The position numbers and the translations under genes were made by a program. The notes below the pieces were generated by a model. That model was not told the origin of the DNA, ran no database searches, and saw only the letters and a program-made list of their open reading frames with translations. A stretch of DNA of 64,000 bases from Symsagittifera roscoffensis (taxonomy: Eukaryota), in contig NC_087064.1 in assembly GCF_963678635.1 (NCBI RefSeq), forward strand, positions 32,809,028 to 32,873,027. Reading direction: 5' to 3'. This document shows, piece after piece, positions 7,579 to 64,000 of this stretch (its first letter is position 1; every line of letters begins with the position of its first letter).

Positions 7579-7850
7579 TAAAGGTCGTCAGGGTACTTTT
7601 AATCCAAATGTTTGGTTTTCCAAAATATCGGTGTTCTCGTCTATGAATGTGTTATTTAATTTTCTGAAGTATCTAAGAGGTGTTTTGTTTCCTAGATTTT
7701 TGATATCTGCCCCTTTACGGGTTTTGTTTTATATTTCTGCCAAGACTTAAGTTGTCTAATGACTGGGTCAAGGTTTTGTTTTTTTCTGTAGTAGTTCCAG
7801 TGTCATTTTTTTCTGTGGCTGGAAAAAAGTGTTTTCAGTTTCTGTTTTTA

Positions 7851-14400: not shown

Positions 14401-15076
14401 CTACAAAAAATATAGTTATCTGGGAGTGCTTTTCCCGAACTATTATTACTGCGAATGTTTTTTTTTGGGTAAACTCTGGTCTTCTTTCATGTACTGATAA
14501 AAAGTTTTATTTAGTTCTTTATGTTTCTGTGGTTTTTTAAGATTATCTTGTTGTTTTTGTTTACATTCAGCGATGCTTTGTCCATATTTACGGCAATAGT
14601 TACAACATTTTTTGAATGACGGTTTTGTTTTAAAATTTGGATTTTTCTTGTAGATATTTAGTAGTTTAGTGATTTTTTTCAGCTAGTTCAATGTCGGAGT
14701 CATGAATGTTATTCATTTGTGAAGTAGTGGTATGGATTTTGTTTTCGTGTTGTAATTTTAAATTTTCTCTTTTTTCCCAATTCAGAGTGATTTCAGCTTG
14801 TCCAAATTCATCTGCTAGTTTTCGGAAATCTATATCAGGTTCTTGACTTGAAGATGGATGTGATGCTCTCTTTTTGTTGCTATTTTTGGTAATTGTGGTG
14901 TTAGAGTCATCATTAAGATTTCTGTCATCTTTTTGTTTTTATAATCAAGCGTATTAGGAGAATATGGTTTCTTACTAATGTTTCAATTCGTACCGCAAGT
15001 TGCTTAATTGTTTCATTAGGGAGTCTACGGAGTCTAGGTTGCATAGAAATTTGATGTTGTTTATTTCTTTCAGTGT
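11464..15076. repeat. Tandem duplication unit 2 (3613 bp).
   Basis: Near-identical to 7851-11463. After ...tttcagtgtcg at about 15076 the sequence continues into a gag-region homolog instead of restarting the unit. Confidence 0.9.
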
Positions 15077-22664: not shown

Positions 22665-23132
22665 ATGTCATTTAAAAACCTAGGGAATAAACAAACAATC
22701 GTTTTACACAATTGTGAAATAGATAACAAAAAATACGACCTTGTAATCACACCTCATACACAAACAGTTGGATACATTCGAACAAAACGACAAACACTAA
22801 AGAGAAAAATAATCACTAAACAAAGACAAATAACACGAAAAAGATTTTCAAAAAATCGAAACGCATTTTCAGAATCAGAAACCAACAGTTTAGACGAACT
22901 CTACAAACTAAAAGAATCAATAGATAAAAATTACCCACAACACGATCAATTATATTTTTCTGACTCAGAAACAACTTCAAATTCATCACAAAGAGGAAAA
23001 AGAAGAATAAAAAAGCAGTATAAACACAAACCAGTACATCTATACAACTGGAATCAACCAATTCGACACATTAATAATTACATATTAACAGTCATCGAAC
23101 GAAAAAATGAGTTCAACGCACACCCCAGGTGA
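22665..23132 (+). CDS. Leader ORF (155 aa, very basic K/R-rich) that overlaps the gag-pol start by 26 nt in another frame. Coding status is uncertain.
   Basis: ORF-track entry. The stop lies downstream of the polyprotein ATG. A-rich sequence biases toward lysine codons, so this may be spurious. Confidence 0.25.
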   Translation: MSFKNLGNKQTIVLHNCEIDNKKYDLVITPHTQTVGYIRTKRQTLKRKIITKQRQITRKRFSKNRNAFSESETNSLDELYKLKESIDKNYPQHDQLYFSDSETTSNSSQRGKRRIKKQYKHKPVHLYNWNQPIRHINNYILTVIERKNEFNAHPR

Positions 23133-29100: not shown

Positions 29101-31329
29101 TTACCAGACACCTTAAGTCGAAATACACCACCTGAATTACTTACACGAAAAACAACAGTTGAAATACCCAAAAATATAAAATTCTACCTTGCAGAAAACG
29201 AAACATCACCTCGATTAGAATGCAAATATGCAGTAAAAACTGATATTGAACAATCACAAATAAATAATTTACAACATTTCCCACTTTATTTAGATTGTCA
29301 AAATAATCATTATGAAGTTGACCTACTTGGAACATCAACTTTTAAACCAATTCCATATTCTCAATGGATAAAAAATAACACCCAACAAAAACGAACAAAA
29401 CAACACCTACCTAAAAAAGACCATTTTCCACTAATTGAAAAAGAAGATTTAACTGATAAAATAAATTTATCAGGACCACAAACAAATGATTCAAAATACA
29501 CAATAAATCAAGTTTTTGACCTTCACGACCCACTTGATACAATACCATTATCTAAATTAGAAATCGAAAACATTTTTCTCCCCCCAACAGAAACAATTAC
29601 AATTTCAACACTGAAACAATATCAAAACCTTGACCCAGTAATTCGACAACTAAAATCATGGCACAAATATAAAACTAAACCTATCAAAGCAGATTCAACC
29701 ATTCTAGGAAACAAAACACTCCTCCGATACTTTCGCAAGTTTAACAATACAACAATTAACGAAAATACAGACCTTTTAGAGTACAACCTTAATGAATCTA
29801 CAGTTCCCTGTCTCCCTATAAGTATGATTCTTATAGCTTTTAATATTTCACATACACAAAACATTAAAGGACACTCTGGATCAGAGAAAACATATTCAAA
29901 TTTTATACAAAATTTTTACTTCCCAAATGCACCAATTTGGATAAAAGTACTATGCAATGATTGTATAGTATGTCAATTAAATAAACCTTACCCAAATCAA
30001 AAACAAATAGCACAAAAACAAGATTTTAAAGGACAAAGTTTATACTTTAATCATCGTATCTCATTTGATACTAAAGGACCAATTTCACCCTCATCAGAAG
30101 GAAACTCCTACATTATGGTAATTGTTGACGCATTTACACATTATGTAGCACTTAACCCAGTACCACATTGTAACGCTTATTACGCATACACAACACTTTA
30201 TGAACACTGGATAGCAAAATTTGGACTACCAGAAATTTTAGTCACAGACAATGGTACAGAATTCATAAATAATGAAATAATAACACTATGTCATTTATAC
30301 AACATTAAACACAAACCACGTACATCTCATGCACCTTGGACAAACGGCTTAGTCGAAGGTATGAACCGTTCACTACAAGAATATCTTAGATGTATCATCA
30401 ACGGAAATGATACCAAATATACCGAATGGTCAGCAGATGTAAAATTATTTCCATTAGCATATAATTCACAAATCACGACAACTTTAGGAATGTCACCATA
30501 CGAAATGGTTTTCAACCAAAAGCCACGCAAACCAATAATGTTTACAGCAAATTCCCATAAAAACGCACAAGGTTATTGTCAACCAAATAAAGACTCAATT
30601 TGTTATAACCTACCATTACATACGCACGATGAAGATCATTTTCATCACCCACAAATCCTTAAATTAGCCTCCGGTACACACACCGAATGGATTTTAAATA
30701 GAGATAAGAAACACAATGAAATTTACCAAAAAATAACGAAAAAGTTATTACAAAGACAAAACATAAATGAACAAATCAATTCACGTTTTACACCAGCTTC
30801 CGATTTAAAAATTGGAACATTTGTTTTAATACCTAATTTTAATACTCAAAAAGGAATTTCTAAAAAATTACAACCCCTCCGAAAAGGACCCTATCAAATA
30901 ATTGCAAAACCCACAGATGTCACATATAAAATTATCGACTCAAACAAAAAAGAAATCGTTCAGCATCGAAACAACCTATTACCTTATTACCCAAAAGAAT
31001 ACGCACTCCGCGAATTAACCCAATTATATTCTTTCACAGGATTAAAAATTATTCAAAACGAACCACATCTGAAAAACACAGAACAAAATGATAACCCCAC
31101 CGAAAATCAAAACACAAAACCAATCGCTACCAAAAACAATACACAAAACCATAAAGAATCTCCAAAACAAAGAAAAAATAGAAAAATGACAGAACAAATA
31201 ATACCCCAAGAAGAAATAGACAAATCAGAACATAGAAAGACAACAAGACTCCGAAATCAACCACGTAAAAACTACAAAATGTTCATCCCCCAATCTAAAA
31301 TATTAAAGAAAGTAGAATTTAAAAATTAA
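23107..31329 (+). CDS. gag-pol polyprotein (2740 aa): N-terminal extension, gag-like, CCHC zinc knuckle, Arg/Ser/Asn-rich region, aspartic protease, RT, RNase H, integrase.
   Basis: Uninterrupted 8.2-kb ORF. Motifs CNYCRRYGHSISEC, FLIDSGAESN, TTADMNSAYNQMPLDE, YGISIGPAAFS, ITYLDDVFM, RVYRFQLILMKFPNLHIVWTAGKNLALPDTLSRN, H-x6-H-x29-C-x2-C, VIVDAF...VTDNGTEF...TNGLVEGMN, LRKGPYQI. Confidence 0.93.
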   Translation: MSSTHTPGDETPDDDEIFPFIVDADTDRGQHIFCQNLLVNLFEPGISPCKTEFPDVKIKRQIIDHYLKDICNITQQYGIYSIEFTSPNHNNRTYTIQTDDLDLEFSKVFSEYIKSIQYHNSQRANSIFTNEVFALIYSYISILENELPLTNVSPTETSKHLRVRHEITLLSSYLNIIKENFTKDDVSQHTKHDLQKILAWFIIDYFTHNIDLIAQARKNFRPQNSNDDTAITEQSDYVWDPEWSHPVFINFPQSISSQAIGTISYIRDYVRVIPLTIDATPLNYNTFLPDTQNNSLNSTVIHNENLNGTRNLTQQDIQTPSHFINEEIVHTTTTQQSISPIRPNLTTPRNTNPSQTQVTLQSTVKPSVAPKYSHMDYQTYKPMTIPSKTRKTFTRNNFADHNYNYTHPSKTNYKPQRNFNQYTKPRNWDNPTAQYNSTNFQPNPPQDRSENYPFFQQNKNKKQTSYQMDYLSSDEDFLQPDIFAPNTQEYRRQGIQKTRTNHRNFSPQSIDAQYQQPIQQPNPINIQSFQPIQQQNPMTTHSYQPSQMQNEIPLPYYLQQHEITRNQLSNFSQMPNAAESLQMTMNPYLMGGSSITSNKPLMVFTGTDPEYSVEDYLNAVTANLILNIGPEPINTPLHQNWIHRRTALIQTTLDGAAQKWFSVLPQEIKSNWKRFTQEFSKMFDSERNKQQQRVLCNEIRRLPNETIKQIAVRIETLVRKAYSLNTHDYKNTKMTEILMMTLTPQLRKIAIKKRASHPSSIREPDLDFRKLVDKLEQAEITMKLEETENLKLQYVNKIETTPTNINNIQESETDLVEKITEILNIYEKNPNFKGKPSFKKWCNYCRRYGHSISECRQKQQDSQNKPQKYKEPNKSFYQYMKKDQNLPNKNVYSNNSSGKPLPNNTSYTRNQSPYNSSYRGRSPERRNTYNSSQNHYNRPNSRNNYSRSNSNTQRFVSRSNSQSRNNYYPNNQSRNSSYNRNRNYSYNRNRSYSNNRNQNYPNNRSRNNSYNRSNYNRPNNNYQNRSRNNSQNRHSSYNNRYRNYSQSPHRNNNNYNNSNNRHRSSTPKHQRQINQVQSNPETTSDPPGIDDTVTDTLQLNQINCTSSDSESDTENTLSINMIKVENDYESVIYEQPFPSHIYENQSEFLQNYYTTPINSTPTTQETNEINTTNQTNKNTKTKCLNTNHIYQNIQKEQPKEKIWTIPFLLESPRNKEFQPPDLEIDFLIDSGAESNIINIPTWNEIKILHPKLTPLETSSKLATAQGSTLINYGKIQLFLLPTRTMEQSKILNKPFKQIFHITDIKYNIIGIPFISKYIPTINILNSKILIKDKYTKTKETSLTFFQRLNKQPPFFSKFYPIFNQQRKHLKPLSGNIYNFSIKQVHQYDKAQNKQKFYMSDFEFKPIHKFFKITISSIKYLKNSNSDIISLHVYNNTPYQVTLPLGVLGYCETNATISPIHEKAYRVNNILQLLDICQSTILNEELSINNIISNENRNTDYFTKTPYFKPTFNISNYTEDQQKFLTMFNFQHSQITQDEFEKLAKQLIQYSSVYATSKFDVGKISSSLHLPLKPDAVFKKQRASKVPIHLHDKVNRLLDILEQYNIISPVNKEEQPKGNTFINPVIILAKGESLKIVLDARYLNSLIDESKCNWLIEPIQVILTKINGKYFTTADMNSAYNQMPLDEQSRRLTQFVIGNQQYEFNRIFYGISIGPAAFSAFMSKIFRPLILKKNAITYLDDVFMQSQTKDEMFKVLETYHQILQNENLKAAPDKSHFFLTRVKFLGHNIERKTITPLKSRIDAIQKLQPPTNKKKIQEFLGMLNFLSKYVYKMQLYLRPFYNILRQQNNFEWNTEHQTRFEEIKKLLTEQISNTIPDPDQPFYAMCDASNFGIGAALLQSHNGTNKMNLISANSRLFTQAELRLSTLMRECTAIIYTLTEYEFLILGSKHPTVLFTDHKPIIFLFTQKSNPNHRVYRFQLILMKFPNLHIVWTAGKNLALPDTLSRNTPPELLTRKTTVEIPKNIKFYLAENETSPRLECKYAVKTDIEQSQINNLQHFPLYLDCQNNHYEVDLLGTSTFKPIPYSQWIKNNTQQKRTKQHLPKKDHFPLIEKEDLTDKINLSGPQTNDSKYTINQVFDLHDPLDTIPLSKLEIENIFLPPTETITISTLKQYQNLDPVIRQLKSWHKYKTKPIKADSTILGNKTLLRYFRKFNNTTINENTDLLEYNLNESTVPCLPISMILIAFNISHTQNIKGHSGSEKTYSNFIQNFYFPNAPIWIKVLCNDCIVCQLNKPYPNQKQIAQKQDFKGQSLYFNHRISFDTKGPISPSSEGNSYIMVIVDAFTHYVALNPVPHCNAYYAYTTLYEHWIAKFGLPEILVTDNGTEFINNEIITLCHLYNIKHKPRTSHAPWTNGLVEGMNRSLQEYLRCIINGNDTKYTEWSADVKLFPLAYNSQITTTLGMSPYEMVFNQKPRKPIMFTANSHKNAQGYCQPNKDSICYNLPLHTHDEDHFHHPQILKLASGTHTEWILNRDKKHNEIYQKITKKLLQRQNINEQINSRFTPASDLKIGTFVLIPNFNTQKGISKKLQPLRKGPYQIIAKPTDVTYKIIDSNKKEIVQHRNNLLPYYPKEYALRELTQLYSFTGLKIIQNEPHLKNTEQNDNPTENQNTKPIATKNNTQNHKESPKQRKNRKMTEQIIPQEEIDKSEHRKTTRLRNQPRKNYKMFIPQSKILKKVEFKN
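25630..25671 (+). other. Nucleocapsid CCHC zinc knuckle (C-x2-C-x4-H-x4-C).
   Basis: tgt aat tat tgc cga cga tac gga cat agt att tcc gaa tgt, in frame. Confidence 0.85.
25800..26330 (+). other. Arg/Ser/Asn/Tyr-rich low-complexity domain (RS-like) between the NC and protease.
   Basis: About 175 residues of repeated SRNNYS / NRNRSYS / NRSRNNSYNR motifs. Confidence 0.8.
26740..27080 (+). other. Aspartic protease domain.
   Basis: IDFLIDSGAESNIINIPTW, with DSG at 26791-26799. The matching segment exists in the degenerate copy. Confidence 0.8.
27810..29130 (+). other. Reverse transcriptase plus RNase H.
   Basis: RT motifs A through E, with YLDD at 28324-28335. RNase H CDASNFGIGAALLQ then TDHKPI, and the linker ending NLALPDTLSRN at 29124. 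Confidence 0.85.
29800..30950 (+). other. Integrase: HHCC zinc finger, DDE core and GPY/F-like C-terminus.
   Basis: HTQNIKGH...CNDCIVCQ, D(VIVDAF)...D(VTDNGTEF)...E(LVEGMN), and LRKGPYQIIAKPTDVTYKI. Confidence 0.85.
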
Positions 31330-31929
31330 TTTTAAAATTTTATACTTCACAATCTTGAAACCTCCGTAACATTTTTCATTTCCATTTTTCAAAATAACAT
31401 GCTCACAAGTACGCAATAATTCTAGTTCAAAATAGACCAATAGGATTCATCCAATCCGCCACTTTCTCTAACTCAAACTAAGATCAATTAGACGAATAAT
31501 CTAGAACTCCAGGCACATCTCTAACTATAACTTTACAACCTCCAGGTCAAAAATAAGCAAACCACTCCAACTTGACAGCTAAAATAAATATCACCATAAT
31601 ACCGTACCCCTCCCTTATCTAATAACCCAAAGATCAACAATATTTCCCCAACTCAGACCACGAATACCCCCAAAACAAATTTGATAACTTAGCCTAAAGT
31701 CACAAAATGAAGATTTTAATTAGCCTAAAGTATAAAAATCTCACCATACCCCGGATCATTTGACAAACAAAAATAAAGAAAAAGACGACCTCCCAGTCAC
31801 CATGAAAATTGCCCCCAACAATTTTTTACGAAACTCAACCCACTTGTCAAAAAACTAATAAATAATTCGACCACACTAGAAAATCGCCTCAAACAGCAAA
31901 AAATATTCGACAAAGAGATCATTTCTTAA

Positions 31930-32345
31930 ATGCTTTTCTCTCAAACAGTCGCTCAAATATTTATCAATTTTAAACATTTTTTTTCAATACTTCAAGTCTT
32001 TATAATCTTTCTTTTTGATATCATCGAATCTTTTCTAATAATCATAATAATTTTTTGTAACATTTTTTTAATTTTCTACACAATAATTGAACTATTCCTC
32101 CAACTTTCCAAAACCCTTGAATATATCCACAGGTACGATTTTAACAACTTGTCTAAATGATACGAACAATTTTCAGTAGAACTGATATTTTTTTATTGTT
32201 TGTAATTTTCATAACATTTCTATCATCCCTCATTTTGACAATATGTAAATGTATAAAGAAAGCAATCATTACATTTGCCCTAGCAACAATTTTTCTAATT
32301 CTTTTTTTAGAAGAATATTATAATAAACATAAACCCTCTCACTAA
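31930..32345 (+). CDS. Two short, very hydrophobic ORFs (76 and 62 aa) joined by an ATGA stop-start overlap at 32157. Coding status is uncertain.
   Basis: ORFs 31930-32160 and 32157-32345. T-rich sequence could create them by chance. Confidence 0.2.
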
Positions 32346-32350
32346 AGTAA

Positions 32351-33488
32351 CAATTTAAAAATCCATCAAAAATTGCTACCCAACAGTCACAGAATCAGTC
32401 TTCACCGACATCATCCCAAGATAATCCAACACCACCTTCAACTACTCAAAACCCTCAAACATCTACACGAATTTCTTTTCAAGACAATCCATACACCTTT
32501 GAAGAAAGGCACGCTCGTTTATCTGAACCACTAGAACCAGTTCAACGACAAGCATCCCTAAGTGAACCAACATATAATCTTTACCCAACACTACCACAAG
32601 AACTAAGTAGAATACGAAACCTTAGTCAAAACCAAAACACAGCAGAAATAAATAGACAAATTATACATCCTCGACGAAATAGAAATTTTCAAACTCCCCG
32701 AGTTCATTTTGATATACCTCAATCCCCAACACAAACCACTCCAGAAAACACCACTGGTATCACACCAGAAACTCCTACACTTTTTTCACAACGAAGCACT
32801 TCAAGTCTACCTTCAGACTACTTAGGTTCAACACCAACATCTGAACAGATACGTGAAAATCCCTTTAACCCCCCAAACCTAACATCACGACTGCCATATT
32901 GGACTACAAATTCATTCACACAAGGTGAACCAAATTTAGTCAATGACCCCATAGATATTTCTACGGATACAACAACATCCTCATCACTACCAGAAACATT
33001 ATCACTACCATCAACACCATCAATAAGTCAATTTTCACCACTACCCTTTAACTTAAATTTTCCAAATAATCTCGACGCCAGATATCGAGAACAATCATCA
33101 ATAAATATTCCTTTAAGATTAGATTGGAATACATTCACAGCACCTCCACCACTATTTGGACAACATCAAGAAAGTAACCGCCTTCATAACTGGGCACTTA
33201 ATAGATTACAATATCGCCAAGATATTCACAACGATATCCGTGATCACAATATTCAAATACTCCAACAAAACAGTTTACAATTAAAATTTGAAATCACAGT
33301 TAAGTTAAATAATATTACCCAACATCCCTACCCATTAAATCCACCTAACATAACAGCTCAATCACTACCACCACCGTTTATAACTACTGAAGTAATATAC
33401 AAATACGACAGATACACTAAAAACACAATTGGTTACATTACATTTTATAATCCATACTCAGGATTATCATACACATGTATATTCTAAA
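32351..33488 (+). CDS. ORFx: open reading frame of 378 codons with no in-frame ATG. N-terminus is S/T/P/Q-rich.
   Basis: Stop at 32348-32350, then no stop until taa at 33486-33488, in AT-rich DNA where stops are expected about every 15-20 codons. The C-terminal part is conserved at protein level in the degenerate copy (ORF 4402-4680). It overlaps the env-like ATG (33475) by 14 nt. Confidence 0.6.
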
Positions 33489-36093
33489 ATTATTAATTTT
33501 TCTCCAAACCCTTTTTCTAATAACCTCAAATCAAAATATAAACCCTTCCCCTCGTACAGGACCACAAGATTTATTAGTAACACATTACGATTGCGAAGAA
33601 AATGAACAAAAAACACTACATAAATATGCAATCAATCAGGTATCACAATGTGAAACAGAACCACAAGCTATAGAAACCACAGATATAATAGCAACACTCT
33701 ATTCAAAAGCCCGAGCAACAACAGTTACAGGTTATAAATTCACAGCAACATTTTCCGAAAAGAAAGTACATTGTTCACAAGTCTCGAACGGAAACAAAAA
33801 CCGACTTGACCATGAATCATTCTACCAAAGTAATATAGAACGTCTTTTACATCTCAATCCCGACGATTGTAAAAATGAATTACTTAGACTAAACATCACA
33901 AAAAATAAAAACTCCCAAAGAAAATTAGTTAATTTTCAAGTTTTTTCAGACTCTGTACATCAATCACAACTTGAAAGACACCAAGGACATATAAGACTAG
34001 ACGAAAAATACCCGTATAACGGCGCACACGGACGATTAACCTATGACCTACATGATAAACACTGGATACCACACATTGGTATAAATAACCCATCAAACTG
34101 CAAAGCAGACACAAAAAATAAAGGATACCAAGAAATAATGTTTTTCGATTGGAAAATACAACTCGAAAAAATACAACTCACACGAGATTTATCTGATAAT
34201 ACAATGATCTATCAAGGAATCCGACTACCTTGTAAAAATGATCAAGGATATTGCGACCCTACAACGAGAACACAAGCAACAATTGTTTGGTTCCCCGAAG
34301 ACACATGTACAACATTTCAAGTAGCAAAAATACACGCTCGTATGATAAAATTTCACGAAAAATATTTCATACAATCAATTCCATATGAACAAGTCCATCC
34401 ATCACGCAAACTAAGTTCCGATTTTCGAAACATAGACAATATAGAAAATAAATTGACACGTTTTCAAATATATCAAGAAACAGAACTTGCATGTAAATAC
34501 AGGAATCCACTTCACAGAACACAATACTCTGAAATATTAGTTGAATATGAAAAAGGATTCGACATGACCACTGGTAAAGTAAAAATCGACCCATACGCCA
34601 CAGGTCATCCTCTAAACGAAGGAACATCCTATATACCAGTTAATTTTGAAAAAAGCAACGGACAACCTGGTGGACATCTAAAACCTTATGACACCAGAAG
34701 CACACGCTTACAAGAATTATCACTAATGAATACTACATATTTTGGTAATATCCACTATGATATTCATTTGGATATGAAACTAGACTATACAATTAGCCGC
34801 ATTTTTCAAGAAATGTCACTCTCTGAATTAGAAACACTACATCAACTATGCGAATTAGAACGAACACAAATACTACAATCACTTGCACTAGCAGTATTAA
34901 AAATACCCTACGCAGGATACTTATTATCAGGAAATAGATCAAATTTTTTAGACTACGAAGGAAACATCTTATGGTTTTATACTTGTACTAAAAAAGTATC
35001 ACCACTATACGTTTTTGAAGATAAACGATGTTATAAAAGAATTCCTATCTTTTATAAGAATAAAGTACATTTCGTGGATACACTTTCACGAAGAACATAT
35101 TTCTGGGATACCGCAGTCCCATGTGGATCAGAAAATAGCCACAATGTAGTACAACTAAACCCTGATGAAAACAAATATTATCTTCTCACTCCATATCCCA
35201 CATTAATGCAATCACTCAAAAAATTTTCACCAGAAAGCATTCGCGCTATTGCTCGAAACCCAAATATAGACTTACAATCAATAGGAATCTATTCAAAATC
35301 AGATATTCAACATCACATTAGAACACAACAATTCCAAGAATTATTAACACAAATGGACACTATACAAAGACAATCAATAGACCAAAACTTACGCAAACTT
35401 GCAGAAACCGCAGGATTTGCCGATATCTACACGCAAGACTATAGCGGATATTTTAAAGACATAAAAGATTATATATATCTAAACGGCGAAAAATACCGTC
35501 CCCAAGATATATCACCAATTAACATTTTTAGCTTTGTTACACTCAAAAATGAGATCCTAGATTTTCTAGGATGGCCCTACTACATCTTAGAAAAATTGAC
35601 TATTTTATACGCAATGTTTAACTTTATTGGATTTCTTTTCTCACTCTTAAAAGGAATCTACAATACATGTGCTATACACACACAAGTAAACAGACAAGCA
35701 AGCGTAGCACGCATACTCTTTGCAGGATTTTTTGGAATTTTTTCCACATCTATAAACAAAATTCTTTTAGACGCACAAATAAAAGAATATAACACAAAAA
35801 TAACAACACGACAAAATACATACGACGAAGAACATAACAATGTCGACACACAGCCAACGGCACCACAATTACCACCCCTACCAAATAACCATCCACTATC
35901 CCTAGCCCCGCGAAATTTTAGAAATTTAGCAATCACACATAATCCAAATTTTCGACTCACCACATCACAAAGTCCCGTCCAACATATAATGACACATCCA
36001 TCACAAGATGATAATACTTATGAACAAATTATTGAACAGCCCCATACCACCGCTTTTCAATCTCAAAATAATAATTTTTTTAGCCCACGATGA
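33475..36093 (+). CDS. env-like glycoprotein candidate (872 aa): N-terminal signal peptide, Cys-rich ectodomain, C-terminal hydrophobic anchor.
   Basis: MYILKLLIFLQTLFLITSNQN is a signal-like start. Many Cys and N-x-S/T sites. Hydrophobic segments LTILYAMFNFIGFLFSLLKGIY and ARILFAGFFGIFSTSI near the C-terminus. Homologous fragments are in the degenerate copy. Confidence 0.75.
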   Translation: MYILKLLIFLQTLFLITSNQNINPSPRTGPQDLLVTHYDCEENEQKTLHKYAINQVSQCETEPQAIETTDIIATLYSKARATTVTGYKFTATFSEKKVHCSQVSNGNKNRLDHESFYQSNIERLLHLNPDDCKNELLRLNITKNKNSQRKLVNFQVFSDSVHQSQLERHQGHIRLDEKYPYNGAHGRLTYDLHDKHWIPHIGINNPSNCKADTKNKGYQEIMFFDWKIQLEKIQLTRDLSDNTMIYQGIRLPCKNDQGYCDPTTRTQATIVWFPEDTCTTFQVAKIHARMIKFHEKYFIQSIPYEQVHPSRKLSSDFRNIDNIENKLTRFQIYQETELACKYRNPLHRTQYSEILVEYEKGFDMTTGKVKIDPYATGHPLNEGTSYIPVNFEKSNGQPGGHLKPYDTRSTRLQELSLMNTTYFGNIHYDIHLDMKLDYTISRIFQEMSLSELETLHQLCELERTQILQSLALAVLKIPYAGYLLSGNRSNFLDYEGNILWFYTCTKKVSPLYVFEDKRCYKRIPIFYKNKVHFVDTLSRRTYFWDTAVPCGSENSHNVVQLNPDENKYYLLTPYPTLMQSLKKFSPESIRAIARNPNIDLQSIGIYSKSDIQHHIRTQQFQELLTQMDTIQRQSIDQNLRKLAETAGFADIYTQDYSGYFKDIKDYIYLNGEKYRPQDISPINIFSFVTLKNEILDFLGWPYYILEKLTILYAMFNFIGFLFSLLKGIYNTCAIHTQVNRQASVARILFAGFFGIFSTSINKILLDAQIKEYNTKITTRQNTYDEEHNNVDTQPTAPQLPPLPNNHPLSLAPRNFRNLAITHNPNFRLTTSQSPVQHIMTHPSQDDNTYEQIIEQPHTTAFQSQNNNFFSPR

Positions 36094-37883
36094 GCCGCCA
36101 ACTTGGATCACTCCATCGATCAAATTCCCATCCAACCAACCTTACCTCTTCAATCCCAATAATACCACTTTTTGCTTTTCCGCCACCCGATTTTCCATCT
36201 AGCAATGTAACATCAGGCATGAATTCCGACACTAACTCACAAATTTCAGTTTTATACTCCATTTCACAGCTAAATAACCCGAATATTGAAACCCCCGACG
36301 AATTTGCCGACTCAGAACCATCTCCATCCAATAATTTTCATAACCCTTCTCATTTTTCTCAACCTCCTTTTCAACCCATATTATCAAATAACCCTGACCC
36401 AATCACTCCTACACCCTCTTATGCTTCCCAAGTTACCCCAACCTACTCCTCATACCATTCTGACCAATCATCTCCAGACACCCCCCGAATCTCCCCAGAG
36501 CTAGACAATTTTATTACCCTCCAACAACAACCCTACCACCTTAACACCCCGACCATAAACCAAATCTCCTCCACTACAAATTCATCCAATCCCCCTACAC
36601 CCTCTTCAAATTATACCGAATCATTAGCACCATCATCCACATCAACTGAATCCTCACTCAACACTAATAGAGCTTATCGCACTTTTAAAAGAAAGTTCCC
36701 CAACCATCCTTTCCCAGCAAAACCAGGAACAGCCCGAGAATACATCAACCACCCCCAACATACTAACACTAGAGAATTTTTAGCCATCACTTTACCCTCA
36801 TTTCCACAATACACCTTAAACACCCCTCATGACGCTAACGAAACACGCAACTTTGTAGACGAATACGTTTTAATGCCCACTCTCTCTTGGACCTCATACT
36901 ATCATTTCACTAACCCTCTTTGCTTACCTTTAACTAACACATCCATTGATATAGACCGAAACAAAGACATGCTATATCGACTAACTACACCACTCACCGC
37001 TAGACAATTTACTTACGTTGGATATAAAAAATCACTAAAAATACACACTGCACCTAGAGCTAACGAATACACACTAGAATACTATGATCACAACATCATC
37101 AGAGCTAACCAAGATCAATTCTTAGACGACGATCGCTTCGCTAACCCACAAATCACCGAGAAATTTTTCATCAATACACCATATGTATTTACACTAAACA
37201 TCTTCGACCGAAAGTTTGATCACATTATTTCAGAAGCACTAACAAGCACACAAGCGTACGAAAGTTTTAAAGAACGCTTCCAAATCTTTTCACTAACCTT
37301 TCATTTCCTTGCACCACACGAAAGAGATTTACACTGCTCACACGATATTATGTTGCGAACTAAACAAACACATACATACAGTTACTATCGTTTCATCCAA
37401 AATCACTTTGACCTCCACACACCCTCTAGACAACCACACCATCGCTTTCAATTCATCAATTCAAAATACACTTCACCGTATTTCCTAAATTTCACATATT
37501 GTATTAAAAATACTAACCTTCATGGTATTCTTCGTAATTATGACCCCATAACCCAAATGTATATTTTCTGCCCCATCACCAAGACCTTCAACGCAGAAGA
37601 ATCCCGACCCTTCCTTATCCCGCACGAGTTTGTACAGCCTATAGAAATCCCCATTTTAGAATTCATCCACAACACTAAATTTAACCACAAGTTATATAAC
37701 TTAATCCAAAACACACCTTATGAGTTTGCAGTAGGCACTGAAGAACTAACCACTATTAAGGCACTTCAATTGCTTTGGCCACTACTTCAAACTAAAAATA
37801 TCATCCGCATCTTAGCTAAACTACTAACAACTTCAGAACTAATTCACAATATCTTCCCCCACGGTTTTTTCCCCGACGACTAA
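36090..37883 (+). CDS. ORF3 (597 aa), unknown function. Pro/Ser/Thr-rich N-terminal half and a structured C-terminal half.
   Basis: Its ATG overlaps the env-like stop (cgATGAgc at 36090-36093). It is conserved in the degenerate copy (822-1495, minus strand). No recognisable motif. Confidence 0.7.
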   Translation: MSRQLGSLHRSNSHPTNLTSSIPIIPLFAFPPPDFPSSNVTSGMNSDTNSQISVLYSISQLNNPNIETPDEFADSEPSPSNNFHNPSHFSQPPFQPILSNNPDPITPTPSYASQVTPTYSSYHSDQSSPDTPRISPELDNFITLQQQPYHLNTPTINQISSTTNSSNPPTPSSNYTESLAPSSTSTESSLNTNRAYRTFKRKFPNHPFPAKPGTAREYINHPQHTNTREFLAITLPSFPQYTLNTPHDANETRNFVDEYVLMPTLSWTSYYHFTNPLCLPLTNTSIDIDRNKDMLYRLTTPLTARQFTYVGYKKSLKIHTAPRANEYTLEYYDHNIIRANQDQFLDDDRFANPQITEKFFINTPYVFTLNIFDRKFDHIISEALTSTQAYESFKERFQIFSLTFHFLAPHERDLHCSHDIMLRTKQTHTYSYYRFIQNHFDLHTPSRQPHHRFQFINSKYTSPYFLNFTYCIKNTNLHGILRNYDPITQMYIFCPITKTFNAEESRPFLIPHEFVQPIEIPILEFIHNTKFNHKLYNLIQNTPYEFAVGTEELTTIKALQLLWPLLQTKNIIRILAKLLTTSELIHNIFPHGFFPDD

Positions 37884-55635: not shown

Positions 55636-56481
55636 TGTTCTTCCAAATGGTGCATTGGTTCTTAATCATCCAGCAATCTCGAGGCAAATTATCCCTGTTT
55701 CCATTCTTTAAAACAATATCCACAAAACTGAATTGATTAGTATTCAAACAATAGAAATCATCACGGTTATTGATTTGCGACAGCAGCATTTTTCATACCG
55801 ATCATAACAAATAAATTTATTCACATGTGACAAACAAATCCAAGAAAGCGTTGAAAAAGCATTACTGAACTAAAGAGTAACAAGGACGAAATTCATGCTA
55901 TAGTTCCGGAAACTCGTTTAGAAAAACTTAGACAACGTTTATTCTTAATAACCAAGACCATTAAGCATATTTCTGTTTCTAATCCGCTGGGAATTCTAAA
56001 AATAAAATTTACTTTAAAACTGTTCAGGGCGAATTTTTGAGCAATATTGATTTTAGTTTTTGGAGAGCTCAAATTTAGCTTCACTTAGAACATGAAGTTG
56101 AAAAACCGGCTAGAATAGTCAACTACCCAGCCAAAATAAATGCGACCCTTGTTTCAGCAACACTGAAGAAATTGGGAAAAATCAATTAAAGAGGAAAATG
56201 ACCAACAAACACGAAACTAAACAAATTGAAATCTAAGTTTTCATTATTACGGTTTAATATACATTTATTTTGCCTTCCAAAATTTCAAATGAATTTTTCA
56301 CCAGCAATGAATACTAGACAAATCTTAAATACTTTTTAATATAGTCAGCAATGTTCCGAACAGTTTGTATTTTTTATTGGTATTTCACGCGTTAGTAATA
56401 CGAACACTGGTTTAACATCAATCGTGCCACGACTCGGATCGTATGTAGTTCCCATCTTTCAAATCGAGTCGGTTTTCGTAT

Positions 56482-56647
56482 CTACATAGTGAAGTAGTCG
56501 CCTCTGATTCTCCTTGCCAGTTGCATATCGCGTGGCATGATAGTGACTCGTTTAGCATGTATGGAACAGAGATTGGTGTCTTCGAACAGACCGACTAGAT
56601 ATGCCTCTGCTGCCTCTTGAAGCGCTCCGATTGCTCCTGTCTGGAAT
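56482..56647 (-). CDS. Histone H3 variant, exon 2 (histone fold alpha2-alpha3, including the stop).
   Basis: Translates to [55 protein letters not shown] followed by a stop. Preceded by the acceptor tttag. Compare H3 [53 protein letters not shown]. Confidence 0.8.
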
Positions 56648-58799
56648 CTAAATATGGTTTCTTATTTATCACCAAGATATAAATATCCTCAATTAATATT
56701 GACTCTTTTCTATTATCGAAACCTTCCCAAAATAAAACATAGCCAATAGACAGTTAGAACAAAGTCAATGAATGCAAGGAAATAGAAAAAAAATTGGCCT
56801 GTGCATAACTTCGGCTTTCGAACTTACATGGCCGTAAAGCTTTTTCAATTTCAAAAAAATTAAGCACGGGAAATCGTGAAGCCCCCATTTCAATTTCAAT
56901 AGATTTCAAACTAAGAAACCGATGACGACTTTTGTGATTTTTACACTTTTGACACTAGATAATGGATTTTGCCTTCCTTTCAACAAAATAAATGAGCTCA
57001 ACTTAAATTGATGAAATCGTGCAGTTTCTAAATGAAATGTTTTTTTTTGCAGACGATACAAAGTTATCGTGTGATTCCTGAAATTCCCATGACTTTCAAT
57101 TAGATTCGACAAATATTTCCACCTGGTTTTTCTTAAATAAGTTTACTCTACACTCAGATAAAACTAACCAAATAAGTTTAGAAAAAAATTAAGGCTTCCA
57201 ATTTTTGCGTCAAAATTTATTATTATAAAGCTGAACCCTCTTGTATGTACCATGATGTCATTGAGGCGACAATACGATATAACTTCAAAAATGAGATACT
57301 ATGTACCATCTTCAACCTTGCTCAAAGACTATCAGTCGTATATAAAGCCAAGTATACAATAACATTACGCGGCCAAACTGTGCACTGGATAGGCGCACAA
57401 TTTTGTGTCTGTATTTCCTGGATTCCGGAGACAAGTCTTTAAACATGTTAAAATTTTGTCGGAACAATCAAAGGAAAGTAAAGAACGAAAGAAGAACAAA
57501 GGGAGCGTCCTTGTTGCGGAATCCGCTTACAATGCACAAAATGCACAGTTTGGCCTCGTAATGAAGATTAGCTCTGCTCTTCTATGGTGGCACAAATTTT
57601 TTGAACCAAATTTTAAAATTTTAAAGTTGCAGTGAAAAATTATTCGCAAGATTCATTTCAAAAGGAAATAAGATACAAAAAAAATAAACTTTTTTAAACA
57701 ACAAAATAGCAACAGTGCATGAAGTATACGTGTACGATTTGTTAAAAATCAGTTTTCGATTGTTGAATTTAGGACTTTGCACAAATTTCTCAAATTTTTT
57801 TCTCTATACAAAGTTTTGCTTCAAAAACAAAAAATTCAATATGTAAAACATTCATTCAACCATTCTGTACAAAAAATCGTTCATGATTAACAGAGCGAAA
57901 ATACTTTTAAAAAAATATTACCGGAGAAAATCAGAAAAAAGCAGTAAATTAAGAAATTGTTTTCGTCGGTAAATTCAAAAGCAATTTTTTACTCGGAAAT
58001 AATGAAATGATGCATCACATATTTCATTAGATAATCACTTTTTAAGGAGATAGTCATTTTAGGGTTGCGAATCTAGCCTGAAACAAATAAACCTCCAAAT
58101 CATTGTAGTTTTCAAGATATCGCGTTTACTTCCAAAAATTACGCAGAGGCGAAGTTGCACTTCGCATACACAAGCAAAAATATGACCGACAACGCTACTG
58201 GGAAACACTGAATGAGTAAAACTTTGAGTCTACAAAATTTCTTAAGTGACGCACGAGAACTATGAGTCTATATAATTGCTAAGTGACGCAAGCCAATTAT
58301 GACACATTAGCACTACCAGTCAATTTGAAAAGAAATTTACCAACTAACATGCCTCAATTTATAGAGCGGACGCATTTTAACTAGTATACGAAAAAGTTCA
58401 TTAAAAACATGCGACCCTGCTGAGGTTCGAACACTCTTTTTTGCTGCTGGTCTCATTCCCTACCTCTACGCTACCGAACTATAACACCTTGAAGCTAAAG
58501 TGCTATTCGTAATACAATGGTGTGAGTTAATATCCTTAGCATTTGCTGTACTTAATCGCTGGTTATTGATCTTATGCATATAATGCAATAAAAGAGCACT
58601 TTCAAAAAGAGCACTAATATTTGCGAGACTTAAGTTGGAAACAAAAGTGAGTTCGTAATATCACACAAGCTTTGCTTGTGTAATCAACAACACTGAAGAA
58701 TTTTTATGCAAAAATAAATATCATTTTAGCGCATATTTTCTTGCTAGATGACTATCAATGTACGTGTGCTCATCTAACCGCAAATTTTAACCCCTATTT

Positions 58800-59125
58800 T
58801 TCAGTTTTAGAATAATCGATCGGAACAATTTTTGAATGAAACTGGATCAATAAGTGAACTTTTTATTCAGCTGGAAATCTGAAGAACAAAGCCAATTTTC
58901 AAAACTAGAAGTCAATCACGTTTTTCGTGACCTAAAACTTTTGCTAATATATAGGTGAGCTTGCCTTCCTTCTTACAAAGGAAAGAAAATGATCTTCACA
59001 AATCAAGTCAAACCGCGAAAAATCCAATTTTAACGTGAACAAACTATTCCGGAAAAAAAAACTTAAAATTCTCAAGACCTACATACGAGTATTCTAGGTT
59101 CATGACTCAAATAAATTTTTAATAT
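58800..59125 (+). repeat. About 300-bp repeat family (Y), the copy inside the H3-variant intron. A partial copy lies at 59330-59460.
   Basis: Shared blocks gaaaactggatcaat..tttattc.gctgg.aatctga...gatcacg.ttt.cgtgacct..acat..ttgcc..aacaaagg.aa...gtcaaaccgcgaaaaatc... with copies at 60722-61330 and 62350-62665. Confidence 0.65.
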
Positions 59126-59588
59126 TAATTAACTATTAATAACTAAAATTAATATTGCTTGACTAGCGGTTAGACCTAAGTAGGCACGCAATGCGCCTTT
59201 CGTCAATCCATTCCAATTTCATGTTCTGAGTTGACTATTTTGATATAAATTGTTTGTAACTAGTTGAAAACACATTGATGATTATTGCTAGATTCGACAT
59301 GATTTTTCGTCTTCTAAGTAAAAAGAAATAAAAAATGAAGTAGCGCAAAAAATCAAATTTGAGCGTGAACTTTTCCTAAAAAATAAAAACTCGTCAGGAC
59401 CTACGTAAGAAGCTTCACTACGTTCATCGACTTCGCTATAATTTTGTCATTGAGATCGGATGTTAAGAAGTCACATACGTGGAGAAATGTTAAACCTTCG
59501 ACGTACAAAAAGCCACAAGCTATTTTGAACCTAATGACGATATAGCTAGACGGTGGAATTATAAGCAAATCGATCTTAAAAATATTAC

Positions 59589-59803
59589 CTCAAATCTGCG
59601 CTTCCGTACACATCCATTGCAATTTCTCTGACCAATCTCTGGAAAGGTAGCTTCCTAATGAGCAACTCCGTGCTCTTCTGGTAGCGCTTGATCTCAGACA
59701 GGGCCACAACTCCCTTCCTCCTCGGCCTCCTCTTCCTCTTGTTCGCCCTCACTTGAGAAGCAGAGTATCTTGGCTGCTTTGTTGGTAGAGACTTCTTCGC
59801 CAT
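59589..59803 (-). CDS. Histone H3 variant, exon 1 (divergent N-tail plus alphaN/alpha1/loop1). It ends at a GTAATA donor in phase 2.
   Basis: [71 protein letters not shown] then AG|gtaata. Splicing to 56647 gives ...[19 protein letters not shown]..., an in-frame continuation of the H3 fold (126 aa). Confidence 0.8.
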
Positions 59804-60721
59804 AACCTTTAAAGTGATTTCAAATATTGACTAATTCTATACTTTTATTTGTCAGAAAAATAATATTCGGTTACTACTTTTAACTTAATCAGACTGCCAA
59901 AGAATTTGTGAACTTTTTAAACTAATTATGTAAACTACTTACTATTTCACTTTTTTTAAACAAGGTCTTTGAGAATCGTTAATTGATTCAAATTAAACAA
60001 ACTACGTTATGTGGCTAAGAAACACTGATAATGGAATGCAGCTGAAATAATTGATACCTTTTATAAATCACTTTTTATTTAACTTACAGTCAAACCTATC
60101 AACAAACTGATTCCAAACGATATATATCATTTCTACCAACTGATGCGATGCCAATTGAAATCTAACTGAGAAAACGCCGAAGGTTTTTACGATGAAAATA
60201 TTATTATCAATTTTAACTTCAATAATTGAGATTCCGACAACGAATTAATTGAGTTGCACGAAACCATTCAAATGTTTCAACAGCGTCAATTAGATCCAGA
60301 AAGTGTCGACATTCGAATTTTTTTGAGCTTTACCTCCAGTACAACTTCAGCCTTTTTTCGTCATTATAGATACAAACAATATTCTTATTTTCACATCGGC
60401 AGATGCAGAAGCGAATCTTCACTTCGCAACCGCCAACAAAAAACGACAAAATTAGGCAAAAAAAACGGCCGAAATTTTGAGAGCAAAATAAATTTAAAAA
60501 TATGTCTCTAAAGAATATAAATTTTGAAAAAAAAAATAAACATAGCCAACATAAAGTTTGAGGAGTCAATGAACACAAGGAAACAGAAAAAACTGACTAG
60601 TTTTTTGGAAAAAAAAACTTCAATTTTTGAATATTAAAGAAAAAAAACATATGCCCTTAAAGCTATTTAAGTTAACATCTTCTTTGAATTTCTTCGAACA
60701 GTCTATGAATGCTGATTGGTG

Positions 60722-61330
60722 TTTGATTAATTAACCCAAATTGAGAAAACTGGATCAATGGGTAAAAACTTTATTTCGCTGAAAAATCTGATAATTGAAT
60801 TCCATTTTCGATATTAGAACTTGATTACGTTTTCCGTGACCTTTACATGTTTGCCTTCTTTTTAACAAAGGAAATGAAGTGAGCATAGGAAAAAACCAGA
60901 AGTCAAACAGCGAAAAATAAAAAATGATCGTGCACAAATTTTAAGACTTTTCCTAAAAAAACCGCAAAAAAAATCACATACCTATATAGAGTACTCACTA
61001 CGTTGATTGCTCTAAATAAAACTAACCCAATTTGAGGAAACTGGATCGGGTAAATTTTTTATTCCGCTGGTAAATTTAAAAATGAAAATCCAATTACGAA
61101 ACTAGAATTCGATCACGCTTTTTGTAGCCTTTACATTTTTGCTGTTTAATAGTGGAGTTTGCCTTCCTTTTAACAAAGAAAAATAACTGAACTGAAAAAG
61201 AAGTCGAAAGTCAAACCGCGAAAAATCAACTTGGCCTGAAAGATTTGAATGCTCTTTTAAGCGGACATAGATCAAAGTGCGGAAAAAATATATACTCGGA
61301 ACGTTCTGTTTCCCAGATAATTCTAGCAGA
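60722..61330 (+). repeat. Two tandem copies of the Y repeat.
   Basis: Units start near 60722 and 61021 (aacccaaattgag.aaactggatc...). Confidence 0.65.
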
Positions 61331-61345
61331 AAGCCTTATAACGCT

Positions 61346-61858
61346 CCTTTTACATATAAAGTTTTGAGTAAAGCGGAGATTAAATTACACTGCGTGCATA
61401 AATATTTAAAATGAACTAGCGGGTGAATCCCACATACGGTGCATCAAAGAGATCGATCAAATAGGAAACTTCATCCTAAATATCATTGGATGAACTAGCG
61501 GGTGAATCCCACATACGGTGCATCAAAGAGATCGCTCAAATAGGAAACTTCATCCTAAATATCATTGAGACCTTTTACATATAAAGTTTTGAGTAAAGCG
61601 GAGATTAAATTACACTGCGTGCATAAATATTTAAAATGAACTAGCGGGTGAATCCCACATACGGTGCATCAAAGAGATCGCTCAAATAGGAAACTTCGTC
61701 CTAAATATCATTGAGACCTTTTACATATAAAGTTTTGAGTAAAGCGGAGATTAAATTACACTGCGTGCATAAATATTTAAAATGAACTAGCGGGTGAATC
61801 CCACATACGGTGCATCAAAGAGATCGCTCAAATAAGAAACTTCATCCTAAATATCCTT
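61346..61858. repeat. Tandem array, period about 146 bp and about 3.5 copies, with an extra internal 79-bp sub-repeat duplication.
   Basis: Unit ccttttacatataaagttttgagtaaagcggagattaaattacactgcgtgcataaatatttaaaatgaactagcgggtgaatcccacatacggtgcatcaaagagatcgctcaaataggaaacttcatcctaaatatcattgaga repeats at 61346, 61571 and 61717. The 79-bp sub-repeat occupies 61413-61491 and 61492-61570. Confidence 0.85.
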
Positions 61859-62349
61859 GGCAAAAATTGATTGCCAAAAAAGCGATCTGCAATACAACCG
61901 TAAAACAGGCTGATAATCCAGAAATGTTACAGCTTTCCGATTTTCCGTCTTGTCTGCAGTGAAAATAGTTGATAGATGAAGACTAAATGAAATTGCACTT
62001 CACACATTCCTAACATGAGAAAAGAAACGCTTTAAAAAACGAAGCGATTATTTTGAACTTATTTGAATTATTTGAAACTTGAATTGTTTCCAGCACAAAC
62101 AGTAACGAAAAAGTACTATCACCCTTCAAATGAAGCAATATGAGGCAACCATGCCGATAATGGATGAGCCAAAAACCTTTTCTTCCGAATAAACTTTTGT
62201 TGCGGAAAAATACAAAAAGAAAATATTAAAAACACTGAAACAGTTTTCAACTAACAAATATGGCCACCATACAGCTGGAGAAGAGCTGATGAGCGCAAGG
62301 AAAAAATGACTTCTTTTTTATCGACACTTTTTTTAAAATAAAAATAACC

Positions 62350-62665
62350 TTTTAAATAAAAATTTTAGAAAACTGGATCAATACGTAAGTTTTTATTCTG
62401 CTGGGAAATCTGAACATCAAAATCTACTTTCGAAAACAGATGTCGATCACGGTGTTCGTGACCTTGACAATTTGGGGCTCGATGCAACGAAACAATGGAA
62501 ATGAACTGATTTAAAACAAATCAAACGTCAAACCGCGAAAAGTCAAAATTGAGCCTAAAAGATTTGAGTAAAGCGGAGCCTGAAAAAAAAACTTTTTCCT
62601 GAAAAAAAAAATCACTATAGACTTATATAAGAGTCTTCACTAAGTTCATTGCTCTTTATAAAAGG
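62350..62665 (+). repeat. Y repeat copy.
   Basis: agaaaactggatcaatacgtaag ... gtcaaaccgcgaaaagtc ... tcactaagttcattgctctttataaaa. Confidence 0.6.
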
Positions 62666-63332
62666 CATATTTAGAATAAGAAGGATATTTAAAATTCTAA
62701 CAAGTTAAAAATACGTCTGTTTGAGTACTTCCAACAGAGAGGACCAAAATTTTTTTACGATGCCCATTAGCACTTGAACCAAAATAAATCCCGTTGGCTA
62801 GCAGAACCAACTCACTACTGATGCAGCAAAATTTTTGAATCCGAATCACGACTGAAAGGGCTTTAATATGATACTGAACTCGAAATATTTGAACTCGAAA
62901 TAAACATGAGATCAAGTGGATTAAAATCATGCTAGCTCATAGTTCCTTCCCACTTCTCGAAGGTATCGGTGCACTTGACAATCGAAAATTCAGTTTCAAA
63001 AAAACAAATTCTTACCTGTCGTTTAGTCATCAGTCGGCCCATGCCAGCTGTCGGTACCTCTCCTCGTTGACTCTTTCGAGCCGTTTGTTTAGTTGTTCCC
63101 ATCTTTTAATTAAGGCTATAGAGTCTGAAAATGAACACATTCACAACCACATAATTTTACGCCAAAATCATTTTGAGATCACAGTAAAAAAGATAGTGGT
63201 TATCATAAATAATCAATTGATAAAAATATACAATTTTAGTTGAAATTACTTTAACTCAGTCAATTTTAATTTGTGCATTTTTTCCTTTTTTTTTTTAAAT
63301 TTTCTGGATTAATTTTCAAGAGCCTTTAAGGT

Positions 63333-64000
63333 AATTCATTCGTTATCACTGGAACTGGAATCAGCCAGTTCTGTTAATTCCATTTCCAGCTGAGTTTGAA
63401 CACATGCATCAATCGCGTTCAAGTGTATCGCGTATTGTTGATCTAGTCCCAAATACGAATCGCTCATAGCGTACAATGTATAAATACATTTTCCTTTTTC
63501 TTCCGGAGAGAAAAACGATAACGAAATCGCTTGTTTGGGTCTCAAACTAGTCAGTCTTTTCAGCGCCAGTAGCTCCTGGTTTTCAATATCGCCCAAAATG
63601 AAAAACCAGCCGGCTGGTTTTGGCTTCGGGAACTTAGGCGCATACGCATTTCTCGGACACCTATTTAACTTCCTCAAATCCAGTTCAACTAAATACTCTT
63701 GGTCAGCGTGTACGTCAATCCAAATATCAGATTTGTTCAAATTAGATTTTGCAGGGTCGACTATGATAACCGGCTTTTGTTTTCTGGTTCCTGGGTCGTC
63801 CTCCCAAAAACCAGAAATTGCCAAATTCATTTTTAGAATCGGGAGAACTTGCAATGCTTTAAAAAACTGCTCTAGTTCGTACTCTTTCATTTGAGGTTGT
63901 AATATCTCTTTCAAAGAGACGTAGTTTTCACGACAATACATCATCAATTCAGGAAGAGATCGTGCGAAGTTAAGGTTTGACTGGTTTCTGTTTTGATTCC
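63333..64000 (-). CDS. C-terminal exon of a Sec63-domain protein (Brr2/ASCC3/SEC63-type C-terminal fold with an acidic Ser-rich tail). It is partial and continues beyond the window.
   Basis: ...PAGWFFILGDIENQELLALKRLTSLRPKQAISLSFFSPEEKGKCIYTLYAMSDSYLGLDQQYAIHLNAIDA...ELADSSSSDNE then a stop. The GW.(L/I)GD...KR...YTLY.MSD.YLG.DQ.Y pattern and acidic tail are characteristic of the last Sec63 unit. The frame is open to the window edge. Confidence 0.6.

Follow-up and report, generated by a model that had tools for sequence, protein, structure and literature searches.

The analysed window, a 64,000-nt stretch of the genome of the acoel Symsagittifera roscoffensis (contig NC_087064.1, positions 32,809,028 to 32,873,027), carries on its minus strand an intron-bearing gene for a non-canonical variant of histone H3. 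The H3-like coding sequence was reconstructed as three coding exons (63102-63016, 59806-59589 and 56647-56482), which together give 87 + 218 + 166 nt and a spliced product of 156 amino acids (aa). The parts of the gene are as follows.

63016..63102, minus strand: coding exon 1 (87 nt), with the ATG at 63102-63100; it encodes MGTTKQTARKSQRGEVPTAGMGRLMTKRQ, and the donor CAG/GTAAGA lies directly 3' (here and below, a slash marks the splice junction)
59807..63015, minus strand: intron 1 (3,209 nt, phase 0, GT..AG)
59589..59806, minus strand: coding exon 2 (218 nt), for a tail segment (32 aa), alphaN, alpha1 and most of loop 1
56648..59588, minus strand: intron 2 (2,941 nt, phase 2, within the loop-1 Arg83 codon; GTAATA..TTTAG)
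56482..56647, minus strand: coding exon 3, for the end of loop 1, alpha2, alpha3 and the C-terminus ...RIRGDYFTM, with the stop codon TAG at 56484-56482

An earlier reading of the same DNA, made from its letters and open reading frames (the sequence-only reading), had described exons 2 and 3 as an intron-containing H3 gene whose tail and C-terminus are altered and whose loop 1 is longer. This general description is supported: the two exons are real and bounded by GT-AG splice sites, they yield the 126-aa product that had been given, and the altered C-terminus GDYFTM is present in translated exon 3. The phase-2 intron said to split loop 1 was also borne out, since it lies inside the Arg83 codon. 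Exon 2 closes with DVYGSADL and the first two bases of the Arg codon (...GATTTGAG/GTAATA), and the acceptor side of exon 3 (56647-56482) reads ...ATATTTAG/. Exon 1 had been missed. It was located by tblastn with the ortholog from another acoel, Convolutriloba macropyga (hereafter C. macropyga; 93% identity over 30 aa). The intron 1 acceptor is AAAG/ at 59808-59807, so exon 2 opens at 59806 (GTT ATG GCG), and the start codon previously assigned at 59803 becomes an internal Met in the three-exon model. An in-frame stop (59833-59831) stands upstream of exon 2, which therefore needs splicing and could not be extended without it. The 156-aa spliced product and the 155-aa C. macropyga protein align over their full lengths with a single gap of 1 aa, and the exon 3 product is 93% identical to that protein.

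The family assignment was made with the 126-aa product, which matches the Pfam Histone domain (PF00125) with an E-value of 3.6e-40 and 137 bits (cut-off 26.4). All of its top matches in PDB are H3 chains, the best of them H3.3 chains (~1e-46). The fold is 85.4% identical to H3.3, 83.1% identical to H3.2 and 59.6% identical to human CENP-A; by the same measure the folds of H3.3 and CENP-A are 63% identical to each other. All 54 invariant columns of a 20-sequence H3 alignment (MAFFT) are kept, and the predicted protein shows a complete H3 histone fold (alphaN, alpha1, L1, alpha2, L2 and alpha3). Residues 87-90 are GAIG in both species, so that I89 and G90 are kept and A87 is replaced by Gly. At position 31 the aligned residue is Gln, and the Ser/Thr of H3.3 is not kept (SASQV vs SAPST). 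The fold changes relative to H3.3 that are common to both species are T45V, R49S/Q, Q76M/I, F78V, T80A/S, S86T, A87G, S96A, A111S, K122R and I124M; residue 111 is one of the positions that destabilise H3t nucleosomes. Both species also share a 2-aa xG insertion in loop 1 and a C-terminus (DYFTM in the window, DYYTI in C. macropyga) that is 2 aa longer than the ERA of H3.3 and aromatic. Loop 1 had been taken to be one residue longer than that of H3; the BLASTP and MAFFT alignments make it two (DVYGSADLR vs DFKTDLR). Separately, one metagenome-derived H3 protein (P0063) has a loop 1 that is 2 aa longer (QEVCGGKDLRFQ).

The recovery of exon 1 changes the picture of the N-terminal tail. Residues 1-16 (GTTKQTARKSQRGEVP) align with ARTKQTARKSTGGKAP, and T3-S10 are identical, as HMMER, BLASTP and MAFFT agree. 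The TKQTARKS module is intact, including the K4 lysine and the entire ARKS context of K9; R2 (replaced by Thr) and K14 (replaced by Glu) are lost. After P16 follows a 15-aa insertion, TAGMGRLMTKRQVMA. The next 14-aa segment aligns with R17-P30 of H3 (RKQLATKAARKSAP) and keeps K18 and K23, and K27 is Tyr in both species (PRYS for ARKS). A further 15-aa segment stands in for S31-G44, where the patch KRKRRPRRK occupies the place of GGVKKPHRYRP before alphaN; one lysine can be aligned with K36, but the GGVKKP context is gone. The net charge of the tail is +19 over 59 residues, compared with +14 over 43 residues in H3.3. Two metagenome-derived H3 proteins, P0046 and P0079, have tails that resemble that of the variant around K18-K27 (KQLPVKQPRTT; KSSPKKEAHADASQV).

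The sequence-only reading had presented a tail of 30 aa that was unrelated to H3 and had lost the contexts of K4, K9, K27 and K36. The stretch quoted as the tail has 31 aa, and its relation to H3 is evident from the 14-aa segment, which three aligners match to the H3 tail. The loss of K27, now Tyr, and of the K36 context was upheld; the loss of the K4 and K9 contexts was an artefact of the truncated gene model, as the missed exon 1 holds them in full. Gene models that start at the first ATG can thus hide a canonical tail motif, because here exon 1 with TKQTARKS was missed.

We further examined the surroundings of the coding sequence. Three features outside it bear on the type and the conservation of the gene.

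56373..56378, minus strand: polyadenylation-type signal AATAAA, which starts 104 nt 3' of the stop codon, as read from the sequence
63125..63138, minus strand: acceptor-like motif GTGTTCATTTCAG/A, 22 nt upstream of the ATG, recognised in the sequence only
63336..64000, minus strand: 3' end of an ASCC3-like helicase gene, the upstream neighbour (tblastx 79% identity over 191 aa; Pfam Sec63, E 2e-10)

No histone 3' stem-loop was found by Rfam at the gathering threshold, nor any other credible candidate, across the whole window, and in 56000-56600, which takes in the 480 nt 3' of the stop codon, RF00032 gave no hit even at E<=10. No other H3, H4, H2A or H2B sequence was found in the 64-kb window. 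A replication-dependent canonical H3 (H3.1/H3.2) was ruled out by the introns, the lack of a histone cluster and the lack of a 3' stem-loop. The predicted gene architecture (introns, no stem-loop, AATAAA, a solitary gene) is of the replacement, replication-independent type, and the transcript is presumably polyadenylated.

Among 5.8 billion proteins, the best full-length relative of the 126-aa product is the C. macropyga protein named 'histone H3.3-like type 2' in RefSeq, with isoforms X2 (P0008) and X1 (P0016), which shows 83% identity at 100% query coverage. Relative to the 126-aa product this protein has about 30 extra N-terminal residues, MGTTKQTARKSQRGEVPTAGMGRLMTKRH. The two genes occupy the same genomic place. 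In C. macropyga (locus L001) the H3 variant is preceded by an ASCC3-like helicase gene, whose end is 392 bp away, and in the window the C-terminus of the ASCC3-like helicase ends 233 bp upstream of the variant; the helicase gene is a synteny anchor and does not belong to the histone gene. The loop-1 intron, for which a check of orthologous position had been proposed, lies in C. macropyga at the identical position and in the same phase (phase 2, Arg83 codon). The acceptor-like motif has a counterpart as well, GTGTTCTTTTCAG/A, located 35 nt upstream of the C. macropyga ATG (L001 ~9953-9966). Its consensus GTGTTC(A/T)TTTCAG/A is kept although the rest of the 233-392-bp intergenic region is unalignable, and it may mark a 5'-untranslated-region intron or a spliced-leader trans-splice acceptor.

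Comparison of the two coding sequences by the Nei-Gojobori method points to strong constraint. For the whole gene the proportion of non-synonymous differences (pN) is 0.108 and that of synonymous differences (pS) 0.70, which is saturated (pN/pS 0.15); for the tail alone the values are 0.08 and 0.68. The tail is 82% identical between the species and evolves more slowly than the fold. In exon 1, 20 of the 87 nt differ, and 19 of the 20 differing codons are changed synonymously, one non-synonymously; the predicted exon is certainly coding in this lineage. Two further assemblies of S. roscoffensis from ENA, L003 (ERZ25071366) and L002 (ERZ25878734), are 99.65% and ~98% identical to the window at this locus. 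The exons are the same in all three assemblies except for one in-frame 6-nt insertion in L002; the non-coding DNA of these haplotypes or individuals differs by 0.35-2.5%. This insertion polymorphism lies in exon 2 (L002 ~10060-10070), where it changes the basic patch from RANKRKRR to RGNGNKRKRR, and all other exon bases are identical.

These comparisons bear directly on the suggestion, allowed for in the sequence-only reading, that the locus is a decaying or processed H3.3 pseudogene, to which we add that it might be a histone fragment borne by the retroelements of the region. The window is indeed rich in retroelement sequence, and a 785-bp fragment with exon 1 has been copied elsewhere in the same genome between retroelement pieces with its donor damaged (L004). 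The 156-codon frame, however, is intact and joined by canonical splice sites; the introns are present, as they would not be in a processed copy; C. macropyga has an intact, syntenic gene despite saturated synonymous sites, with the low pN/pS given above; and the exons do not vary among the three assemblies of the species apart from the in-frame 6-nt indel. A pseudogene or a carried fragment is exceedingly improbable on this evidence. By its sequence conservation, the locus is a functional gene under strong purifying selection, not a pseudogene.

The distribution of the variant appears narrow. A tail-only profile recovered only same-species open reading frame (ORF) fragments among the 5.8 billion proteins and had no match in the JGI metagenomes. 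When HMMER was run exhaustively over 1.84 billion cluster representatives, the profile again found only same-species fragments. Variants grouped at 50% identity beneath an H3.3 representative would have escaped these scans, as has evidently happened to the C. macropyga protein. The variant is known so far only from S. roscoffensis and C. macropyga, two convolutid-type acoels. We found no paper in the literature that describes it, and the C. macropyga copy bears an automatic RefSeq name.

Taken together, the H3.3-like fold, the gene architecture and the conservation between the two species make it likely that this is a single-copy, replication-independent H3 gene derived from H3.3 in the acoel lineage. 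Some points weigh against this reading. First, the 63016^59806 junction is predicted from homology, reading frame and splice consensus. Second, the first intron differs between the species: in the window it separates Q29 from V30, and in C. macropyga it lies 20 codons downstream (QLK/AKK), with a continuous exon at the site of the window's intron. An intron has therefore been gained or lost since the species split. The C. macropyga first intron holds a 36-nt cassette exon, which gives rise to isoform X1. Third, the dN/dS of ~0.06 for the whole gene is only approximate because dS is saturated. Fourth, an AlphaFold2 monomer model built with a 20-sequence alignment placed the helices where they are expected with low confidence (predicted local distance difference test score 51.7, predicted template modelling score 0.26).

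A related question is whether the two-exon, 126-aa form could be a true isoform transcribed from a promoter in intron 1, that is, an H3 without the K4/K9 module beside the 156-aa form; this also would count against the three-exon gene as the whole account. Exon 2 does contain an ATG (59803) 3 nt from its start, and an in-frame stop precedes this ATG by 28 nt; in C. macropyga, two isoforms with different tails (P0008 and P0016) are annotated. The Met at 59803 is, however, not conserved (VMAKK in the window vs MIGRK in C. macropyga), the matching C. macropyga codon lies in the middle of that species' exon 1, and in the lineage of the window the coding constraint on exon 1 is strong. We consider such an isoform unlikely.

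The sequence-only reading had pointed to CenH3/CENP-A-type or germline-specific H3 variants. In the former case the variant would be the acoel centromeric histone, marking centromeres and recruiting CENP-C through loop 1 and a hydrophobic C-terminal tail. Several traits agree with it. Loop 1 contains a 2-aa insertion with Gly, aligns without gaps with that of human CENP-A and has the same length; the C-terminus is extended and hydrophobic (DYFTM / DYYTI); and the N-tail is modified and the gene has introns. An extended hydrophobic C-terminus recalls the CENP-C-binding tail of CENP-A. CenH3 sequences are recognised by an extended loop 1 and by the lack of three H3 residues, Gln at 69, Phe at 85 and Thr at 118 (criteria quoted by Drinnenberg et al. 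2014, PMC4359364). By our reading, the Thr of this set corresponds to T107. The variant keeps Q68, F84, T107 and T118 (PFQRL, LRFQ, EDTNLC and RVTIMP), and human CENP-A has S, W and A at the Gln, Phe and Thr sites. CenH3 folds are moreover only ~50% identical to H3, and their tails are unalignable and fast-evolving (Talbert and Henikoff, PMC8015243). The fold identity of the variant is 85% with H3.3 and 60% with CENP-A, and in alpha2, which forms the core of the CENP-A targeting domain, the variant is nearly the same as H3.3. Its tail can be aligned to H3, retains the TKQTARKS module and is strongly conserved between two genera with saturated dS, with a pN below that of the fold.

The extended loop 1 is therefore the only one of the CenH3 sequence criteria tested that the variant shares, and we rejected membership in CenH3 on account of the retained diagnostic residues, the H3.3-like fold and the conserved, alignable tail. 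A centromeric identity keeps a slim chance because loop 1 has the CENP-A length and the C-terminus is longer and hydrophobic. No paper combining CenH3 and Xenacoelomorpha was found in the literature. One may still speculate, at slightly longer odds, that convolutid acoels use a nearly H3.3-like protein as a centromeric or centromere-associated histone that escapes all standard diagnostics. If this were true, it would be a CenH3 whose alpha2 is of the H3.3 type, whose loop 1 is as long as in CENP-A and whose hydrophobic C-terminal tail can bind CENP-C. A longer loop 1 does not by itself make a CenH3.

For an H3.3 derivative, the retained and altered residues suggest the following mode of action. 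The variant would pair with H4 and enter nucleosomes outside S phase, probably by way of H3.3-type chaperones that read I89/G90. Nucleosomes containing it would be open to methylation at K9 and to binding by HP1-type chromodomains, because the QTARKS recognition sequence is intact. Methylation of K27 by Polycomb would not be possible; with the SETD2-type context gone, K36 would not be read in the normal way. The R2T change, together with the G1 N-terminus, would be expected to weaken reading of K4 by WDR5 or PHD-type domains, and K122R would take away an acetylatable lysine at the dyad. The positive charge of KRKRRPRRK, placed at the DNA entry/exit between the gyres, may bind the DNA ends more strongly. 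In combination these features would favour stable, Polycomb-independent chromatin, which could be compacted or heterochromatic. By analogy with other lineage-specific H3.3 derivatives, the most likely use would be in the specialised chromatin of one cell type, in the germline/sperm or in stem cells.

In H3.3 derivatives confined to one lineage, evolution has in effect experimented with the histone tail. The present one keeps the K9/HP1 module, removes the Polycomb site by a Lys-to-Tyr change and adds both a 15-residue insert and charge at the entry/exit site, and this combination is constrained across deeply diverged acoels. As acoels are regeneration models, a variant without K27 could help to study how chromatin states are reset or protected.

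The introns of the gene contain a set of local repeats. Intron 2 had been described as repeat-filled. Repeats do exist there, but "filled" was an overstatement: ~380 of its 2,941 nt resemble further copies in the window, which without exception lie in intron 1, and a single 83-nt tandem repeat is present. The intronic repeats lie at 60729-61248, 61346-61860 and 62358-62663 (intron 1) and at 58824-59043 and 56908-57007 (intron 2). A ~200-300-bp repeat occurs five times in the same orientation, three of the copies being in intron 1; within the 64 kb this repeat is confined to the two introns of the H3 variant gene. The segment 61346-61860 of intron 1 is a 146/224-bp tandem array with 98% identity. 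These repeats may be related to the origin or growth of intron 1, which has no C. macropyga counterpart at its position. A tRNA-derived short interspersed nuclear element proposed in intron 2 (~58440-58500) was unsupported, as ARAGORN found no tRNA.

The rest of the window is marked by retroelements. On the plus strand, 23107-37883 holds a very large, apparently intact endogenous retrovirus of the Ty3/gypsy type. It has a 2,740-aa gag-pol ORF (gag, reverse transcriptase, RNase H and integrase), followed by an 872-aa ORF that matches the Monjiviricetes fusion glycoprotein (rhabdovirus-G-like, class III; E 3.9e-11) and then by a 597-aa ORF without a Pfam match. The GC skew is -0.3 to -0.5 across this element, with skewed composition over ~22-40 kb. 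Positions 1-16000 show the opposite GC skew (+0.2 to +0.4) and contain a decayed integrase ORF (7051-7578, minus strand); this part of the window looks like a second, inverted and degraded copy of the same retroelement family. Retroelement pieces on L004, a different contig of the L003 assembly, match the window at 3921-8215 and 29185-33977. Between such pieces, L004 9572-10337 duplicates window 63531-62752 over 785 bp with 91.6% identity. The duplicate runs from the 3' end of the ASCC3-like gene through the intergenic region and exon 1 into intron 1. It has no change in the 87 nt of exon 1 and 39 substitutions in 700 flanking nt, its donor reads GCAAAA in place of GTAAGA, and neither exon 2 nor exon 3 is present within 10 kb. 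The perfect match of exon 1 could reflect chance (P ~0.01), gene conversion or use of the exon.

Among known histones the variant is closest to canonical H3.3 (animal H3-3A/B, Drosophila His3.3 and C. elegans his-71/72). Like these it carries I89/G90 in alpha2 (GAIG vs AAIG), its fold is 85% identical, and like H3.3 genes it is solitary, has introns, lacks a 3' stem-loop and is followed by AATAAA. It differs from H3.3 in the 15-aa tail insertion, in R2T, K14E and K27Y, in the loss of S31, in KRKRRPRRK at the K36 context, in the loop 1 extended by 2 aa, in K122R and A111S, and in DYFTM for ERA. It also evolves much faster than H3.3, with 11% fold divergence between two acoels. As to gene structure, the variant has its intron in loop 1, whereas H3.3 of the mollusc Mya arenaria has a coding-sequence intron after codon 94 and the coding sequence of H3.3 in the coral Montipora has none. 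With CENP-A the variant shares a loop 1 longer by two residues including Gly, a longer hydrophobic C-terminus and a non-canonical N-tail; it is unlike CENP-A in keeping Q68, F84 and T107, in its H3.3-like alpha2 and in its conserved, H3-alignable tail.

Lineage-restricted H3 derivatives with few fold substitutions also include H3t/H3.4, H3.5 and H3.Y. These have tails of normal length with K27 and K36, and none has a 15-aa insertion, K27Y or a loop-1 insertion. Testis- and lineage-specific H3 variants of animals are often expressed in spermatogenesis (PMC8015243). Within acoels, Hofstenia miamia has H3.3 and H3.3-2 (both AAIL), H3.3-3 (AAIG) and H3.3-4 (IALE) (Hulett et al. 2023, PMC10163032), and one of its H3.3 paralogs marks a subset of neoblasts and is needed for regeneration (PMC10163032). 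These paralogs set a precedent for cell-type-specific H3.3 derivatives in acoels; compared by motif only, the GAIG of the variant matches none of the four.

A further parallel is found in plants. Arabidopsis sperm H3.10 (MGH3) is an H3.3-like histone that is changed near K27 and escapes K27 methylation (PMC8015243). H3.10 is altered around K27, and the variant at K27 itself (Tyr); H3.10 is sperm-specific and has an independent plant origin. To our knowledge, it has neither a tail insertion nor a change in loop 1. It is conceivable, though we hold the idea only tentatively, that the acoel variant is an animal counterpart of H3.10, that is, a K27Y, K9-competent H3.3 derivative lacking the K36 context, for Polycomb-immune chromatin in germ cells or neoblasts.

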